A stretch of DNA of 10,589 nucleotides from an uncultured Methanosarcinales archaeon (GTDB lineage Archaea; Nanobdellota; Nanobdellia; Woesearchaeales; CAZDUE01). The notes beneath the pieces are model-generated. The model was not told the origin of the DNA. It did not search any database and saw only the letters and a list, made by a program, of their open reading frames with translations. The translations under genes were made by a program, and so were the position numbers. The stretch covers positions 1-10,589 of the forward strand of contig CAZDUE010000049.1 of NCBI GenBank assembly GCA_964508575.1. The letters are read 5' to 3'. Of the stretch, positions 2,669-9,330 are shown in pieces (positions within the stretch are counted from its first letter, which is position 1; every line of letters starts with the position of its first letter).

Positions 2669-3457
2669 TTATATCAAATCTTCTTTGCTATGTACATGTT
2701 TTTCTTTTTCTGAGCTTACATATCCATTTAGTAGTCCTTTATGCACTAATGATGGAAATATTTCAGTTTCAAGGCTATGTCCTTCGCGTTCAAGGATTTC
2801 TGGTTCTATTATGAAGATTGGTGAGAATACGAGGTTACTGTCAGCGTCTGATTTTTGGACAAATTCTATTATTTTGGTGCCTTGCATTCTTACACTGCCT
2901 TTATGTGCTGGTTCTGAAGAAGTAGTAAGCATTATTGTTGCACTGCTCCGGTTATTAAGATGGTTATTCCAGAAATCTTCAATATTGACATTGTCAAAGA
3001 TTATGTCGCTGTAAACTACTAGTGCTCGTTCTTTTAGTTTAGCTTTAAGATATCTTAGGGAATCAGCTGTTCCTCTTGATGTTTTCTCTTCAACATAGTT
3101 GATTTTTACTCCAAATTCAGAGCCGTCTTTTAATATATCAAAAATTCCAGTTAATACTTTATGTCTGGCAATGATGTAAATCTCTTTAAAATCGCTTTCT
3201 CTTAGTTTTTTTATTGCTCTGGATATTATTGTTTCATTTTTTAATTTCCCTAGAGGTCTGAAAATATCAAGACCTTTTATTTTTAGATCTTCTTCATTTC
3301 CTCCTGATAATATTACCGCAGTTCTTTTTTCACCTATTGCAGTTCTAGCGAGAAATTCTATTGCTTGGCTTCTATTTCTTATAGTTATATTGTCAATATA
3401 TTCATCTATTTTTTTAAGTATCTCTTTCTCGATTGTTATGCTTATTTTTTCTTTCAT
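2669..3457 (-). CDS. fusion protein: N-terminal ribbon-helix-helix (NikR/CopG-type) DNA-binding domain + sugar-phosphate nucleotidyltransferase-like domain with a degenerate NTP-binding loop; candidate transcriptional regulator
   Basis: The N-terminal KISITIEKEILKKIDEYIDNITIRNRSQAIEFLAR fits the RHH pattern (alternating beta-strand, helix A, N-R-S-x-A-I turn, helix B); compare NikR TITLDDDLLETLD...NNRSEAIRDILR. The remainder aligns along its whole length with RmlA/GlmU-type nucleotidyltransferases: AVILSGG, LKDGSEFGVKINYVEEKTSRGTADSL versus [32 protein letters not shown] versus LGDNIF, QKSDADSNL versus EKPKQPKSN. The G-x-G-T-R-L loop, however, reads SGGNEEDLK, with no Thr-Arg. The track ORF begins at a TTG at 3466; the first ATG, at 3455-3457 (MKEKISITI...), is the more likely start. 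Confidence 0.8.
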   Translation of the reverse strand: MKEKISITIEKEILKKIDEYIDNITIRNRSQAIEFLARTAIGEKRTAVILSGGNEEDLKIKGLDIFRPLGKLKNETIISRAIKKLRESDFKEIYIIARHKVLTGIFDILKDGSEFGVKINYVEEKTSRGTADSLRYLKAKLKERALVVYSDIIFDNVNIEDFWNNHLNNRSSATIMLTTSSEPAHKGSVRMQGTKIIEFVQKSDADSNLVFSPIFIIEPEILEREGHSLETEIFPSLVHKGLLNGYVSSEKEKHVHSKEDLI

Positions 3458-3466
3458 GAGATTCAA

Positions 3467-3514
3467 TCAAAATGATATGATAAACAAATATATAAATTTA
3501 TCGGATAAGGTAGG
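3467..3514. promoter_or_regulatory. compact bidirectional promoter region with a near-palindromic TATA element and candidate operator
   Basis: AAATATATAAATTT at 3486-3499 is almost self-complementary. It sits about 22 nt from the + strand ATG at 3515 and about 30 nt from the minus-strand ATG at 3457, so it could serve as the TATA box for both divergent genes. An 11-bp palindrome TTATCGGATAA (3498-3508) overlaps the predicted + strand transcription start, and an additional GATAA half-site lies at 3479-3483. Confidence 0.45.
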
Positions 3515-4882
3515 ATGAAGGTAAGATATTTAAACTTGTTGCGTTTTCTTCAAGATAACATGAAAATAGGAATATTCGGCGTGGGATATGTCGGCTTAGT
3601 AACAGGAGCTTGCCTTGCAGAATTAGGAAATCAAGTTATTTGCTATGATATTGATAAAACTAAGATTGATGCTTTAAATAACGGCAAAATTCACATTTAC
3701 GAGCCAGGACTTAAAGAAATGGTTGAAAGGAATTCTAAAATTAAAAACCGACTTGCTTTCACTAATGATCCAGAAGAAACTGTAAAGAATTCTGAGATAA
3801 TATTCATTGCTGTTGGAACTCCTTCTAATGATGATGGCAGCGTGAACTTAAATTATGTAAAAGGAGCTGCTGAATTGATTGCAAAAAACATGGATTCTTA
3901 CAAAATTATTATTAATAAAAGCACAGTGCCTGTTGGAACTGGCAATATTGTTGCAAAAACAATAACGCAAAATTATAAAGGAAATTTCGATGTTGTTTCA
4001 AATCCTGAATTTTTGCGTGAAGGAAACGCAATCCATGATTTTATGCACCCTGATCGTATAGTTATAGGAAATGGTGACGGTGTTCACGGAGCGCATATAG
4101 AAGCTGTAGAAACAGTAAAAAAGTTGTATGCTCCTTTGAAATCCACAATACTTGTTACTGATATAAATAGTGCTGAAATGATAAAATATGCCAGCAATGC
4201 ATATCTTGCAGCTCAGATTTCTTTTATAAATGATCTCGCAAATTTTTCTGAATTAGTGAGCGCGGATATTTCAAAAGTTGCTGAAGGTATGAAACTCGAT
4301 AAAAGAATAGGTAAGCATGCTTTTTTGAATGCAGGAATCGGCTATGGGGGAAGTTGTTTTCCTAAAGATGTTCGAGGAATTATCGATACAGCCAAGGCAA
4401 ATAATTATAATCTCTCAATTCTCGAATCAGTAGAAAAGGTTAATGAGAAGCAGAAGACTCGAATTGTCGAGAAATTAGCTAAACATATCAACATCTCTGG
4501 AAAAAATATTTGCGTTCTAGGGTTAAGTTTCAAGCCTAACACTGATGACATAAGAGAAGCTCCAAGTTTAGATGTAATAAAACTTTTATTAAAAGAAAAA
4601 GCAAAAGTTCGAGTTTATGATCCCGTCTCCATGGATAATGCTAAAAAGCTTTTTTCAGATTCACATTCAGATTCACAAATAGAATTTTCTAAAGATCCTT
4701 ATGAAGCTGCTAAAAATTCAGATGCCCTTTTAATATTGACAGAGTGGAATGAATTTCGCGAGTTAGATATGAAAAAAATAAAAAGCTTAATGAATACTGC
4801 ATTAATAATTGACGGAAGAAACATTTTTGATCCTGTTGAACTTAGATTATTAGGAATAAAATATGAAAGTATTGGAAGGTGA
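3515..4882 (+). CDS. ugd: UDP-glucose 6-dehydrogenase (nucleotide-sugar dehydrogenase family)
   Basis: Rossmann GxGxxG (IGIFGVGYVGLVTGACLAELG), the active-site block GYGGSCFPKD, and the C-terminal UDP-binding domain (LGLSFKPNTDDIREAP) are all present, and the length is typical. An alternative start is the ATG at 3560 (MKIGIFG...), the usual family N-terminus. The 3' end overlaps the next gene by 20 nt. Confidence 0.9.
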   Translation: MKVRYLNLLRFLQDNMKIGIFGVGYVGLVTGACLAELGNQVICYDIDKTKIDALNNGKIHIYEPGLKEMVERNSKIKNRLAFTNDPEETVKNSEIIFIAVGTPSNDDGSVNLNYVKGAAELIAKNMDSYKIIINKSTVPVGTGNIVAKTITQNYKGNFDVVSNPEFLREGNAIHDFMHPDRIVIGNGDGVHGAHIEAVETVKKLYAPLKSTILVTDINSAEMIKYASNAYLAAQISFINDLANFSELVSADISKVAEGMKLDKRIGKHAFLNAGIGYGGSCFPKDVRGIIDTAKANNYNLSILESVEKVNEKQKTRIVEKLAKHINISGKNICVLGLSFKPNTDDIREAPSLDVIKLLLKEKAKVRVYDPVSMDNAKKLFSDSHSDSQIEFSKDPYEAAKNSDALLILTEWNEFRELDMKKIKSLMNTALIIDGRNIFDPVELRLLGIKYESIGR

Positions 4883-5937: not shown

Positions 5938-6861
5938 ATGAAAGTGATTGTTACAGGCGGTGCAGGTTTTATAGGAAGCCATATTGCAGAAGCTTTAATA
6001 AAAGAAAAGCACGAAGTAATAGTTATCGATAATCTTGAAACTGGCTCTAAAGATAACCTTCCTAAAGGGACTAAATTTTGCAATGCGGATATCCAAGACT
6101 TTGATAAAGTTCACGAGATTTTTAAAAAAGAAAAGCCAGACGCTGTTTTTCACCTTGCAGCTCAGATAAATGTACGTTCTTCAATAGAAAACCCTATGAA
6201 GGATGCTGAAGTGAATATGTTGGGAGTAATAAGTATTCTGGAAGCAATGTCTCGAAATGGAGTAAAAAAAATAATTTTTTCAAGTTCTGCTGCTGTTTAT
6301 GGAGATCCAGTTTTTTTGCCAGTGTCAGAATCCCATCCATTGAATCCTAAAAGTCCTTATGGTCTCTCAAAAGCAGGAGCTGAAGAGTACATTAAATGGT
6401 ATGAAAAAAACAAAGGCATTGAGTATGTAATTTTAAGATATGCAAATGTTTATGGTCCTCGTCAAGGATATAAAGGAGAGGCAGGAGTTATTTTCTTATT
6501 TGCCAATCTTTTATTGCAGAAAAAGACTCCAACAATTTTCGGTGATGGTAAACAGACAAGAGACTTCATATTTGTCGATGATGTTGTCTCTGCAAATCTT
6601 TCTGCGTTGAAAATTAAAGGCAAGTCAAAAATTTTTAATATAGGAACAGGCACTGAAATCACATTAAATGAGTTATATGAAAAGCTTGCGTGGGTTTCAG
6701 GATTCAATCCAAAGCCGAAGAAATTAGACGCTGTTCCAGGCGATATTAAAAAAATGGTTTATGATATTTCTCTTGTTCAGCGTGAGTTGAACTGGAAGCC
6801 GAAAACTAGTTTAGAAAAAGGTCTTAAGATTGTTGTTGAAAGTATAAATGCTAAAAAGTAA
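5938..6861 (+). CDS. NAD-dependent nucleotide-sugar 4-epimerase (GalE / short-chain dehydrogenase-epimerase family)
   Basis: Motifs present: VTGGAGFIGSH Rossmann; S-S-S-A-A-V-Y-G-D-P; the catalytic Y-x-x-x-K in PYGLSKAGAEEY; and YANVYGPRQ. AAGGTGA Shine-Dalgarno lies 5 nt upstream. The substrate (UDP-Glc, UDP-GlcA or UDP-Xyl) cannot be assigned from sequence alone. Confidence 0.85.
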   Translation: MKVIVTGGAGFIGSHIAEALIKEKHEVIVIDNLETGSKDNLPKGTKFCNADIQDFDKVHEIFKKEKPDAVFHLAAQINVRSSIENPMKDAEVNMLGVISILEAMSRNGVKKIIFSSSAAVYGDPVFLPVSESHPLNPKSPYGLSKAGAEEYIKWYEKNKGIEYVILRYANVYGPRQGYKGEAGVIFLFANLLLQKKTPTIFGDGKQTRDFIFVDDVVSANLSALKIKGKSKIFNIGTGTEITLNELYEKLAWVSGFNPKPKKLDAVPGDIKKMVYDISLVQRELNWKPKTSLEKGLKIVVESINAKK

Positions 6862-6912: not shown

Positions 6913-7860
6913 ATGAAAGTTTTAGTCACAGGAGGAGCTGGTTTTATTGGCAGTCATCTATGCGAGCATCTTTTAAAAAATAATAAGATTACAGAAGTTA
7001 TTTGCATGGATAATTTAGCTTGTGCTAATGAAAATAATATTAAGCATCTTAAGAAAAATTCTAAATTCAGGTTTATGAATCATGATATTGTGAATATTGA
7101 TAATATCAATAAATCAAATATTAAGTGTGATTACATAATGCATTTCGCTTCTAGACCTAGTCCTATTGATTATGTTCGCGATCCAGTTCCAACCATGTTA
7201 GTCGGCTCTTTCGGGACTTATAATATGCTTGAACTTGCCCGCAAGAATAATTGTGAAATCCTTTTTGCATCAACTTCAGAAGTTTACGGCGATCCTTTGG
7301 AGCATCCTCAAAAAGAGAGTTACTGGGGTAATGTTAATTGTATAGGTCCTAGAGCTTGTTATGATGAATCAAAAAGGTTCAGCGAAGCTTTAATGTTCTC
7401 TTATCATAGGCAGTATGATGTTAAAATAAAGATTATAAGGATATTTAACACTTATGGCCCTAGAATGAGAAAGGATGATGGACGTATTGTTCCAGCGTTT
7501 ATCAGTCAAGCTTTAAAGAATCAGGATATTACTGTTTTTGGTGATGGAAAACAGACAAGAAGCTTTTGCTATGTTTCTGATCTTGTTTCTGGAATTATTA
7601 AATTCATGGAGCTAAAGCAAAATTACACAGGACCTATAAATCTTGGAAATCCTGATGAATATACCGTTATTGAATTTGCAGAAATTATAAAAAAATTAAC
7701 AAAGTCAAAATCTAAACTTGTTTTTAAAGATCTTCCTAAAGATGATCCTGCTAGAAGAAGACCAGATATTAATCTTGCGAAGAAAATTCTTAACTGGAAG
7801 CCGGAAATAAGCTTAGAGCAGGGATTGAAAGAGACTATTAATTGGTTCAAGGAGAATTGA
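6913..7860 (+). CDS. uxs: UDP-glucuronate decarboxylase (UDP-xylose synthase)
   Basis: It has the VTGGAGFIGSH Rossmann start, then the UXS-diagnostic block HPQKESYWGNVNCIGPRACYDESKRFSEAL...IRIFNTYGPRMRKDDGRIVPAFISQAL...TVFGDGKQTRSFCYVSDLV. This matches UXS/ArnA-decarboxylase-type enzymes (E-x-Y-W-G, C-Y-D-E-x-K-R, R-I-F-N-T-Y-G-P-R-M) rather than epimerases. Confidence 0.8.
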   Translation: MKVLVTGGAGFIGSHLCEHLLKNNKITEVICMDNLACANENNIKHLKKNSKFRFMNHDIVNIDNINKSNIKCDYIMHFASRPSPIDYVRDPVPTMLVGSFGTYNMLELARKNNCEILFASTSEVYGDPLEHPQKESYWGNVNCIGPRACYDESKRFSEALMFSYHRQYDVKIKIIRIFNTYGPRMRKDDGRIVPAFISQALKNQDITVFGDGKQTRSFCYVSDLVSGIIKFMELKQNYTGPINLGNPDEYTVIEFAEIIKKLTKSKSKLVFKDLPKDDPARRRPDINLAKKILNWKPEISLEQGLKETINWFKEN

Positions 7861-7876
7861 GTTCTAAAGACGCATC

Positions 7877-8362
7877 TTAAAGTTTTACTTTATTATACTC
7901 GTGTATCGGATCATCCTGAACATAAGGAATTCCTTGTTTTAATGAGAATTCTGCTTTTGCAAGTTCATATCCAAGATAAGAAGCATGCTGCAAGCTTGAT
8001 ATTAGTTTATTCTTGATTATTGTATTGTAAATGTCTTCCCCATTTTTTCCTTCTATTCTTAGCTTTAATTTGTGTTTTCCATTCTCAATCATATAATAAT
8101 TGACTCGGATTACTTTTTCATCATGAAACGGCTTTATTGTGAAGAAGCACTTTTTAGGATCTAATTTCCATTCTTTCGTGCTATGATAAGATGCTTTTAT
8201 AAGAGGCGCAGACTCAAAATCTTGAGTATATTCAATTCTCATGAAATAGGGCTTACTTTTCTTGCAAGAGGGACATTTCCAAGTTTTAGAAAGCTCGTCA
8301 AACTTCTTTTTTCCTTTGTTTTCAATTCTTTCATAACCACATCTGCATAAATGCTTTATCAT
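7877..8362 (-). CDS. zinc-ribbon protein of unknown function (161 aa)
   Basis: The N-terminal C-R-C-G...(20 aa)...C-P-S-C forms a four-Cys Zn-ribbon. It is followed by about 120 aa with no family recognisable by eye, although a conserved-looking block H-A-S-Y-L-G-Y-E-L-A-K-A-E lies near the C-terminus. It has its own TTTATAAA box (8384-8391), centred about 25 nt upstream of the ATG, and converges on the UXS gene across only a 16-nt gap. Confidence 0.6.
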   Translation of the reverse strand: MIKHLCRCGYERIENKGKKKFDELSKTWKCPSCKKSKPYFMRIEYTQDFESAPLIKASYHSTKEWKLDPKKCFFTIKPFHDEKVIRVNYYMIENGKHKLKLRIEGKNGEDIYNTIIKNKLISSLQHASYLGYELAKAEFSLKQGIPYVQDDPIHEYNKVKL

Positions 8363-8421: not shown

Positions 8422-9330
8422 TCATTTCCTCTCAAACTTGTGTCCGCCAAATTCATTTCTCATTACTGCAAGTAGTTTTCCTCGATAATTTGGACTTTTT
8501 CTTGTTTCTACTCGCATTTTTCTAGCAGCTTCTAGAACTTTCATAGGTGCTTTTTTATTTAAGATTTCAAGCTTTTCCATTTCTTCTTCTGTTTCTCCGC
8601 GAGGAACTTCTCCAAATACTTCGTCAAAATAATCTCGGTTCATTCCTTGTTCCAGCCATGACATTAAACTTGAGGATACAATACTGCCATTGCTCCATGT
8701 TTGAGCTACTTTTTTCATGTCAGTATTAGTTTTATTTTCTGAAGAATATTCATTCACAAGATTCATTCCTTCTGCAATAGCGCCCATCATTCCGTATTCT
8801 ACAGCATTGTGCACTGCTTTAACTAAATGGCCAGATCCTGTTTTTCCCATGTAACCATACCCATTCTTTACACACATATCTTTAAACAAAATCTCAACTT
8901 TTTTGAATATTTCTTGGTCTCCTCCGATCATCATGCATGCTCCTTTTCTTGCTCCAGAAATTCCTCCTGATGTTCCAACATCAAGATAGTTTATTCCTTT
9001 TTTCTTCAAATAAGAATGTCTTCTTTTCGAGTCTTCAAAATAAGAATTTCCTCCATCAATAATTATATCTCCTTTGTCAAGCAGAGGAATCAATTTTTCA
9101 ATATGTTCATCAACCGGGGATCCTGCATTTATCATGAGCCATACAACTCGAGGATTTGGCAGTTTGCTTACAACTTCTTCAAGCGTATAAGCAGGAATTG
9201 CTCCGTATTTTTCAGCTTCTTCGGTTTTTTCAGGGCTTCTGTTGAATGCTACAACTTGATGCTTATGTTCTAGCAAATTAAGAACCATGTTCATTCCCAT
9301 TCTTCCTAGTCCTACAAATCCTATTTTCAT
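8422..9330 (-). CDS. gnd: 6-phosphogluconate dehydrogenase, short (about 300 aa) decarboxylating-like form
   Basis: N-terminal MKIGFVGLGRMGMNMVLNLLEHKHQVVAFNRSPEK is the 6PGDH NAD(P)-binding signature. GNSYFEDSKRR and GTSGGISGARKGACMMIGGD match the catalytic region of gnd/YqeC-type enzymes. The 302-aa length fits the short archaeal/YqeC form. AGGTGGA Shine-Dalgarno lies 4 nt upstream. Confidence 0.85.
   Translation of the reverse strand: MKIGFVGLGRMGMNMVLNLLEHKHQVVAFNRSPEKTEEAEKYGAIPAYTLEEVVSKLPNPRVVWLMINAGSPVDEHIEKLIPLLDKGDIIIDGGNSYFEDSKRRHSYLKKKGINYLDVGTSGGISGARKGACMMIGGDQEIFKKVEILFKDMCVKNGYGYMGKTGSGHLVKAVHNAVEYGMMGAIAEGMNLVNEYSSENKTNTDMKKVAQTWSNGSIVSSSLMSWLEQGMNRDYFDEVFGEVPRGETEEEMEKLEILNKKAPMKVLEAARKMRVETRKSPNYRGKLLAVMRNEFGGHKFERK

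Follow-up and report, generated by a model that had tools for sequence, protein, structure and literature searches.

A predicted one-component regulator joining a ribbon-helix-helix domain to a degenerate sugar nucleotidyltransferase fold, encoded divergently from a UDP-sugar operon in a DPANN archaeon

The stretch of DNA analysed here (the window) comprises 10,589 nucleotides of contig CAZDUE010000049.1 (assembly GCA_964508575.1), deposited as uncultured Methanosarcinales archaeon and placed by GTDB in the Woesearchaeales. Its minus strand carries a gene, called RHH-NTase below, whose product joins an N-terminal ribbon-helix-helix (RHH) domain to a fold of the sugar-1-phosphate nucleotidyltransferases (NTase), and which is transcribed away from an operon for UDP-sugar synthesis headed by the gene for UDP-glucose 6-dehydrogenase (Ugd). 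We consider it probable that this protein is an autoregulated one-component repressor with a pseudo-enzyme as sensor, acting on the divergent operon. A one-component regulator had been proposed by an earlier sequence-only reading of the window, and the genome comparisons reported here support it: the divergent arrangement is retained in most related loci, a near-invariant operator-like block lies between the two genes, and this block travels with either of them.

Gene organisation of the locus

The features of the locus are collected in Table 1. An upstream in-frame TTG at 3466 is also open for the RHH-NTase reading frame, and the peptides quoted in the sequence-only reading are all present in the translation: KISITIEKEILKKIDEYIDNITIRNRSQAIEFLAR (residues 4-38), SGGNEEDLK (51-59), LKDGSEFGVKINYVEEKTSRGTADSL, SDIIF and QKSDADSN. 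The protein ends at residue 262, with no hexapeptide or left-handed beta-helix match, and its gene is adjoined by those of Ugd and of an SPFH protein. Identification of the protein as the antitoxin of a type II toxin-antitoxin system was considered and rejected, as no toxin gene accompanies it and the 215-aa NTase fold joined to its RHH is GT-A-like, not Pol-beta; a match to HicB_lk was weak (E=0.03).

Table 1. Features of the RHH-NTase/ugd locus, with positions in the window
Feature	Position	Strand	Basis or remarks
RHH-NTase gene	2669..3457	-	262 aa + stop; ATG start at 3457 gives MKEKISITI, as in homologues
NTase-like domain (residues 46-262), putative ligand sensor	2672..3322	-	Pfam, NCBIfam, PDB, Foldseek
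Degenerate phosphate-binding loop S51-G-G-N-E-E-D-L58, replacing (L/A)-G-G-x-G-T-R-L	3284..3307	-	Profile alignment, translation
NikR-type RHH domain (residues 1-45)	3323..3457	-	Family profile and conservation
Conserved promoter/operator block common to both divergent genes (predicted)	3489..3535	.	Cross-genome conservation
TATA box 2 (TTTATATA on the minus strand), predicted promoter of RHH-NTase itself	3489..3496	-	~35 bp upstream of the RHH-NTase ATG; role predicted
Third operator element, near-palindrome TTATCCGATAA (putative)	3498..3508	.	Conserved block
Operator repeat 2, CATCCTACC, family consensus TATCCTACY (putative)	3509..3517	-	Conserved block; 11 bp from repeat 1
Operator repeat 1, TATCTTACC, at the BRE position of the ugd promoter (putative)	3520..3528	-	Conserved block
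TATA box 1 (TATTTAAA), predicted ugd promoter	3527..3534	+	Position, ~26-33 bp upstream of Ugd ATG 3560; role predicted
Ugd, first gene of the operon	3560..4882	+	TIGR03026, 466 bits (cut-off 190)
Sugar-1-phosphate NTase, intact GKGTRLRP loop, C-terminal beta-helix	4863..5873	+	Profile searches
GalE-like NDP-sugar 4-epimerase	5938..6861	+	Profile search
UDP-glucuronate decarboxylase (UXS, UDP-xylose synthase)	6913..7860	+	Human UXS1, E=5e-96
BRE, transcription factor B (TFB) recognition element.

The two divergent genes had been described as sharing a promoter of 48-57 bp; this figure has to be corrected, since with Ugd starting at 3560 the spacer amounts to 102 bp (3458-3559). The longest open reading frame for Ugd begins at ATG 3515 (MKVRYLNLLRFLQDN...) and runs through the conserved TATA/operator block described below, while the Ugd homologues all start with MKIGI (MKIGIFG), which corresponds to ATG 3560. 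For both reasons we place the start at 3560, and annotations that start Ugd at 3515 are likely to be wrong. The further suggestion that the operon makes UDP-glucose (UDP-Glc), UDP-glucuronate (UDP-GlcA) and UDP-xylose (UDP-Xyl) is reasonable, with a presumptive specificity for the operon NTase. In most of the related loci that have a UXS, it shares 51-62% identity with that of the window; a few outliers are at 25-33%.

Ugd lies upstream of, and divergent from, the RHH-NTase gene in 76 of 83 non-redundant related loci, at 400 bp or less in 65, and genes for an NTase and a UXS usually come after it. Where the two genes are separated by about 1 kb, the operon is still divergent but begins with an additional, inserted gene.

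The UXS gene of one locus (L003 1737-3692, identical to L017) encodes 651 aa, with a LAGLIDADG_3 match between two Epimerase halves that suggests an intein. In another (L070 3701-4903), a 400-aa reading frame stands between operator and Ugd, with what appear by eye to be LAGLIDADG-type motifs. Split matches to Ugd (residues 1-267 only) were seen in L016, L047 and L071. Homing elements seem to target the Ugd operon.

The ribbon-helix-helix domain

Taken singly, the RHH-NTase protein gives only marginal RHH matches (Pfam RHH_1 E=0.15, Pfam/PDB searches E=0.15-0.29, NikR models E=2e-4). This was resolved by a profile built from 61 diverse family N-termini, which matched residues 2-44 of E. coli NikR (PDB 1q5v) at E=4.4e-11 and P. 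horikoshii NikR (2bj1) at E=4.7e-7, as well as CopG at E=0.02 and an RHH antitoxin, so that the assignment of residues 1-45 to an RHH in the sequence-only reading is borne out. Pfam RHH_1 (PF01402) is matched individually by 48 of the 61 members (best E=1.8e-9). In the profile alignment, K/R4, S6 and T8 of the beta-strand fall on R3, T5 and T7 of NikR, and N28-R29-S30 on the NRS that caps its helix 2. Conservation was counted in 120 clusters at 90% identity from the Woesearchaeal clade: K4, S6, T8 and S30 are invariant (120/120), and N28 and R29 are each found in 119.

The NCBIfam NikR equivalog models cover only residues 3-46, at 19-22 bits against cut-offs of 83-175, and the C-terminal ACT-like domain by which NikR tetramerises and binds nickel was not found in residues 46-262, which score as PF00483 instead. 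A monomer model of the protein was built with AlphaFold2 on 24 homologues (predicted local distance difference test score, pLDDT, 80.8). Its N-terminus consists of an extended or coil segment and helices at residues 11-20 and 29-41, with a pLDDT of 56-67; such low confidence is expected, because an RHH is one half of an obligate dimer.

A nucleotidyltransferase fold with a degenerate loop

The sequence-only reading had assigned the remainder of the protein to the sugar-phosphate NTase fold, which holds in both sequence and structure searches. Residues 47-230 match Pfam NTP_transferase (PF00483) at E=3.5e-17 (63.2 bits, cut-off 21.2), and Foldseek with the AlphaFold2 model returned GDP-mannose pyrophosphorylases (GMPP), RmlA and MurU at E ~1e-16 and a TM-score of ~0.7 (7x8j, 4ecm, 1lvw). 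Sequence matches in the PDB comprised RmlA, GDP-mannose pyrophosphorylases, MurU and eIF2B-gamma. The named NTase equivalogs of NCBIfam (Arch_glmU, rmlA_long, AglF, MurU and others) all scored far below their cut-offs, the best being TIGR03992 with 71.9 bits against 292. The description of one segment as almost identical in pattern to RmlA was too strong, given that overall identity is only about 20-25% to RmlA-type enzymes and about 17-25% over RmlA, GlmU, AglF and GDP-mannose pyrophosphorylase. We also rejected the idea that the domain is a recent duplicate of the operon's own NTase, which would have given a hint of its ligand; to either type of that NTase it is just 23-24% identical.

The replacement of the catalytic GxGTRL loop, likewise noted before, was confirmed by profile alignment: GG-N-E-E-x-L faces GG-(T/F/Y)-G-(S/T)-R-L of RmlA and GMPP, and in the window protein the third Gly has become Glu55, the Thr Glu56 and the Arg Asp57. 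G52 and G53 are invariant across the Woesearchaeal clade, position 55 is acidic in all 120 clusters (E113, D7), position 56 is mostly Glu, and the position of the catalytic Arg (57) varies (H43 N35 R19 K8 S6 D5). Being conserved across the clade, the degenerate loop is not a sequencing accident. The lysine context that follows it was correctly reported as altered, in that the Lys of PKP is changed, but the change is a conservative one (Arg67) and not a plain loss. The sugar-side peptides SDIIF and QKSDADSN are both present, and the base and sugar pocket is kept, with the Asp of GD as D151, the Lys of EKP as K202 (Q-K-P in the window protein) and the base motif E-E-K-x-S-x-G-T-A-D. The second metal-binding Asp is Asn244 in the window protein (N108, Q9 in the clade). 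At the base-reading position stands Glu124, as in GDP-mannose pyrophosphorylases, where RmlA has Gln. This pattern of conservation is consistent with continued binding of a nucleotide-like ligand after loss of the canonical reaction.

A further motif near the C-terminus, S-S-E-K-E-x-H-x-H (residues 248-256; nt 2690-2716, minus strand), is near-invariant in the same 120 clusters, with S248, K251, E252, H254 and H256 in all of them, S249 in 118 and E250 in 116. It is without counterpart in RmlA and GMPP enzymes and could be a metal or ligand site standing in for the lost Asp.

The conserved block between the divergent genes

The intergenic sequences of the related loci cannot be aligned, except for one block with the consensus (purine-rich)-TATTTAAATA-TCTTACC-w-TTATCCTAC-y-TTAT-m-C-k-A-y. 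It consists of a palindromic TATA box abutted by direct repeats TATCYTACY at spacings of 11 and 10 bp. Anchored on its core in 80 sources, the block holds 1.7-2.0 bits per position over ~36 bp, whereas most flanking positions do not exceed 0.3 bits, an A-rich stretch upstream of the TATA box being among the modest exceptions. With flanks so nearly unconserved, the conservation of the block is not attributable to recent common ancestry. The core ATCTTACCNTTATCCTAC (up to 3 mismatches in 17 specified bases) was found in 80 of 84 sources, at essentially one site per locus in 774 kb, in which ~2 matches are expected by chance under uniform base composition; three weak extra matches were seen. The number of 9-mer repeats within the window alone is not significant (9 found against 8.5 expected), and the evidence is therefore that of cross-genome conservation and spacing. 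No Rfam match to a known RNA element was obtained in the spacer at E <=1.

Measured from the Ugd ATG, the motif lies at a median distance of 30 nt, and at 28-39 nt in 49 of 66 loci. With this nearly fixed spacing, TATA box 1 is at the right distance for a leaderless ugd mRNA and its BRE coincides with repeat 1; the ugd mRNA is accordingly predicted to be leaderless or near-leaderless. On the other side two arrangements occur. In loci with a short spacer (26 loci), a third direct repeat TATACTACC is followed by the RHH-NTase ATG within 8-29 nt, and a second TATA-like box is present in none of the 26. In loci with a long spacer (40 loci, including the window), the third element is the near-palindrome given in Table 1 in 24 and a second TATA-like box is present in 26. 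The short-spacer loci thus have no TATA box other than the palindromic one between their two divergent genes, which both appear to be leaderless; this suggests a single bidirectional archaeal promoter. In the window, TATA box 1 lies inside a perfect 10-bp palindrome (3526-3535), with purine-rich, BRE-like sequence on both sides.

Linkage of the block to the two genes

The block stays upstream of the RHH-NTase gene where Ugd is absent or replaced (L068, L075, L208), and upstream of Ugd where no RHH-NTase gene is adjacent (L114, L126, L127, L181). At L001 and L039 it heads a pair made up of a small reading frame and the RHH-NTase gene. Only one locus (L006, 4940-5000) has the whole TATA-plus-repeat block inverted relative to the RHH-NTase gene, with TATA box 1 ~30 bp from the RHH-NTase ATG and the Ugd operon co-directional.

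A blind exact-match scan of metagenomes gave 130 occurrences of the motif, of which 78 are followed by an RHH-NTase gene and 8 are cut off by the end of the contig. Judged by eye from their flanks, the other 44 comprise ~10 operator-like sites, ~15 in 11-bp satellites and ~19 without TATA context, the last of which look like chance matches. Eight of the ~10 additional operator-like sites adjoin a gene for Ugd or a related sugar dehydrogenase.

The half-site can be compared with that of NikR, which in E. coli is GTATGA (PMC7055735). Read on the complementary strand, the half-site of the block (GTAAGA/GTAGGA) matches it at 5 of 6 positions, in keeping with the recognition strand common to the two proteins. 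The Micrarchaeota offer a second comparison: upstream of the homologue of Ca. Gugararchaeum (L087 4923-4966) lie TTTATAATA and then three copies of TATTAC at 10 and 11 bp, plus an inverted copy. This homologue, which sits in an N-glycosylation cluster (with a faint AglB-like match on a nearby 965-aa gene), has a different beta-strand (RVSFF) and a different half-site in the same upstream layout.

Some metagenome contigs consist wholly of an 11-bp satellite (L111 1-4106; also L106, L149, L200 and L203). L111 holds 367 copies of GATAATGGTAG, the reverse complement of CTACCATTATC, and both unit and period are those of the operator repeat TTATCCTACCA.

Size and distribution of the family

A word-indexed search returned 785 relatives of the RHH-NTase protein, the top 120 of which are all full length (~265 aa). 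Where named in the databases, the top relatives, from Woesearchaeota/Nanoarchaeia, appear as 'hypothetical', 'NDP-sugar pyrophosphorylase family' and 'sugar phosphate nucleotidyltransferase'. In a scan of one genome per species, relatives were present in 172 genomes; the titles of the 80 of these that were retrieved name Woesearchaeota, Nanoarchaeota/Nanoarchaeia, Micrarchaeota, unclassified 'archaeon' and 'uncultured Methanosarcinales', the last apparently a placeholder. An exhaustive hidden Markov model search of 50%-identity representatives gave 127 matches at E <=1e-30, and 128 of the best 150 representatives have the full-length RHH+NTase architecture. The fusion thus recurs in other genomes, in at least 128 clusters at 50% identity. 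One full-length relative, that of Ca. Gugararchaeum, is annotated as AglF.

Common, enzyme-annotated homologues with an intact GxGTRL loop had been named in advance as evidence against a regulator. Homologues are indeed common and are named pyrophosphorylase, AglF or hypothetical, but the clade of the window is without an intact loop, and the canonical GxG(T/S)(R/K)L is kept in just 7 of the 128 full-length representatives, all distant, with many others intermediate. It is likely that the RHH-enzyme fusion lost catalysis repeatedly and that the clade of the window is among the most derived.

One relative with an intact GKGTKL loop (P0228) is encoded behind a sigma-70-like promoter (TTGACA-17-TAGAAT; L209 1760-1830) and a GGGAG Shine-Dalgarno sequence, and from this bacterial-type promoter the fusion also exists in bacteria. 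A constant association with sugar genes was considered for the whole fusion family and rejected, because P0123 and P0228 sit in other contexts; two other distant members (P0145 and P0237) are found in glycan clusters. Full-text literature searches yielded no description of a regulator combining an RHH with a sugar nucleotidyltransferase or pyrophosphorylase in archaea or DPANN, in agreement with the impression in the sequence-only reading that this architecture is not a described regulator family.

Other genes of the window

Two overlapping small genes on the plus strand, at 162-404 and 401-784, probably form a VapBC toxin-antitoxin module; their products are a PRK13696-like protein of 80 aa and a PIN-domain VapC toxin of 127 aa. 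Two further genes on the minus strand encode a 161-aa protein with CxxC pairs (7877-8362), the C-terminal half of which matches the C-terminal parts of MtrA and dihydropteroate-synthase-like models, and a 302-aa Gnd-related 6-phosphogluconate dehydrogenase (8422-9330) that scores above the NF007161 cut-off.

Proposed mechanism and alternatives

In the proposed repressor, the RHH would be the DNA-binding part, its dimer inserting the K4/S6/T8 beta-ribbon into the major groove of two or three tandem TATCYTACY sites (complement GTARGATA) one helical turn apart. The dimers would thus lie on one face of the helix and be kept in register by the NTase domains. As the sites abut the TATA box of the ugd-NTase-(epimerase)-UXS operon, bound protein would cover the BRE and touch the TATA box. 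At its own promoter, the sites would lie between TATA box and start (short spacers) or at the BRE (long spacers, as in the window), and sites in either place are typical of archaeal repressors that act by excluding TFB or RNA polymerase. Occupancy is therefore predicted to compete with TFB or RNA polymerase at both promoters, by which the protein would repress its own gene as well as the operon leading from UDP-Glc through UDP-GlcA to UDP-Xyl. The NTase-fold domain would act as a non-catalytic sensor, with a nucleotide sugar or sugar-1-phosphate setting the affinity for DNA. The most economical logic would be classical feedback with a pathway product (UDP-GlcA or UDP-Xyl) as co-repressor; the alternatives would be precursor-driven de-repression, or activation.

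Several observations weigh against this repressor. The DNA binding and the ligand of the protein are both things that we infer from sequence comparison, and the RHH of the AlphaFold2 monomer, with its low confidence, gives no positive evidence. With Glu124 matching the GDP-mannose pyrophosphorylases, the ligand need not be a UDP-sugar. The retention of D151 and K202, together with R67 in place of Lys, makes residual or altered catalysis possible, and the canonical loops of the 7 distant relatives imply that the ancestral fusion may have been an active enzyme. Distant family members occur in non-sugar contexts, and in two loci (L046 and L079) the RHH-NTase gene lies behind an EndA-like gene and has no block.

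The position of the repeats also bears on the sign of regulation. In the long-spacer loci, including the window, they all lie between the two divergent TATA boxes and upstream of both, and in archaea such a position can also mean activation, as with Ptr2 and TrmBL1, which bind upstream of TATA/BRE. The same protein on the same operator might therefore be an activator, recruiting TFB and TATA-binding protein to a weak BRE when a precursor (UDP-Glc, Glc-1-phosphate or UTP) is available. We regard this as rather unlikely: the BRE itself is covered by repeat 1, which also extends 2-3 bp into the TATA box; the repeats of the 26 short-spacer loci stand between the only TATA box and the RHH-NTase ATG, the classic position for repression; and RHH proteins of the NikR, MetJ, Arc and CopG type are mostly repressors. 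The retained active-site residues raise a different question, namely whether the protein is a bifunctional enzyme-repressor in the manner of PutA, BirA or NadR: its RHH would bind DNA and its NTase would still transfer a nucleotidyl group, perhaps with unusual substrates or with a metal held by the acidic loop and the C-terminal HxH. Invariance of D151, K202 and the GTA base motif would suit such a protein, as would purifying selection over the whole domain, which equals that in the neighbouring enzymes, and the canonical loops of the distant fusion relatives, which suggest an enzyme-regulator as ancestor. We nevertheless hold it to be quite improbable, since the third Gly of the loop has been replaced by a Glu that puts a carboxylate into the triphosphate-binding turn, any of H, N, R, K, S or D is accepted at the position of the essential Arg, Asn or Gln has replaced the second metal-binding Asp, and an intact NTase is already encoded by the operon in most related loci.

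Finally, the protein might be an ordinary or dead enzyme paralogue in which the RHH-like segment only oligomerises; the block would then be no more than a strong core promoter, or would belong to an unrelated factor. Annotation pipelines do name these proteins pyrophosphorylases, the block does include a genuine TATA box, and it persists beside Ugd in loci without an adjacent RHH-NTase gene. It persists equally beside the RHH-NTase gene without Ugd, however, and repeats with helical periodicity, found once per locus, are not a general promoter feature; moreover, the DNA-contacting residues of NikR are conserved and invariant, and in the Micrarchaeota the half-site changes along with the beta-strand. 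This explanation thus appears highly improbable.

Returning to the repressor with a pseudo-enzyme sensor, we lean slightly towards seeing in it the first known representative of a large and so far undescribed transcription factor family, with at least 128 clusters at 50% identity in Woesearchaeota/Nanoarchaeia, Micrarchaeota and some bacteria. In this family an NTase fold progressively stripped of catalysis would sense a nucleotide sugar and gate a NikR-type RHH on tandem direct repeats that abut the archaeal TATA box.

Significance and comparison with known systems

DPANN archaea have been brought into culture barely or not at all, and to our knowledge their gene regulation is little characterised. 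Very probably the protein described here regulates the synthesis of surface-sugar precursors in this group, as a hitherto undescribed factor. The surface glycans of these archaea may, we suggest, matter for attachment to host cells. What is proposed is a concrete regulator-operator pair, with an operator of ~36 bp in more than 80 species-level genomes, predicted DNA contacts (K4, S6, T8) and a short list of candidate ligands. If true, it would be the first predicted pair of this kind for DPANN archaea, and would represent direct transcriptional feedback on the supply of cell-surface glycan precursors. It would also add the PF00483 nucleotidyltransferase fold to the enzyme folds recruited as sensor domains of transcription factors, and the members with intact and degenerate loops would form an evolutionary series from enzyme-regulator to pure sensor. 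Hundreds of database entries named 'NDP-sugar pyrophosphorylase' or 'AglF' are probably regulators.

Among enzymes, the closest in fold are RmlA, GlmU, AglF and GDP-mannose pyrophosphorylase, with which the RHH-NTase protein shares the GTA base motif, the Asp of GD and the Lys of (E/Q)KP. It differs from them by GGNEE-x-L in place of GxGTRL, by the loss of the second metal-binding Asp and by its N-terminal RHH. Sugar-NTase folds that serve without catalysis as regulatory or sensing modules are found in GMPPA, eIF2B gamma/epsilon and the KJC-type pseudo-NTases. The best matches of the window protein, by fold and by sequence, include GMPP-type chains, with PDB 7d72/7d74 among the best by fold, and GMPPA itself is a non-catalytic NTase paralogue that binds GDP-mannose (PMC11228364). 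These proteins, however, regulate a partner enzyme or translation factor by protein-protein contact and have a C-terminal left-handed beta-helix and no DNA-binding domain, whereas the protein described here has an RHH and no beta-helix.

Enzyme-derived one-component regulators are known in PutA (RHH and proline dehydrogenase), BirA, NadR (helix-turn-helix and nicotinamide mononucleotide adenylyltransferase), NrtR (Nudix-like domain and winged helix-turn-helix) and B. subtilis PurR (phosphoribosyltransferase-like domain and winged helix-turn-helix). As in the regulator proposed here, an enzyme fold, active or degenerate, confers specificity for the ligand on a DNA-binding domain by which the genes of the cognate pathway are controlled; we know of none among them that has the PF00483 fold, controls nucleotide-sugar synthesis or comes from DPANN archaea. 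The nearest relative on the DNA-binding side is NikR, whose homologous N-terminal RHH shares the R/K-x-S/T-x-T recognition strand and the NRS cap. NikR also has the same order of an RHH followed by a C-terminal domain for ligand binding and oligomerisation, and a half-site (GTATGA) resembled by GTA(A/G)GA. In NikR, however, that C-terminal domain is ACT-like and binds nickel, in contrast to the 215-aa NTase fold found here, and the half-sites are inverted and separated by 16 bp, whereas the repeats found here are direct and spaced by 10-11 bp; an organic ligand is presumed here, instead of a metal. Taken together, these comparisons support the prediction of a one-component regulator with a previously unreported sensor fold, which belongs to both the RHH superfamily and the PF00483 fold family.

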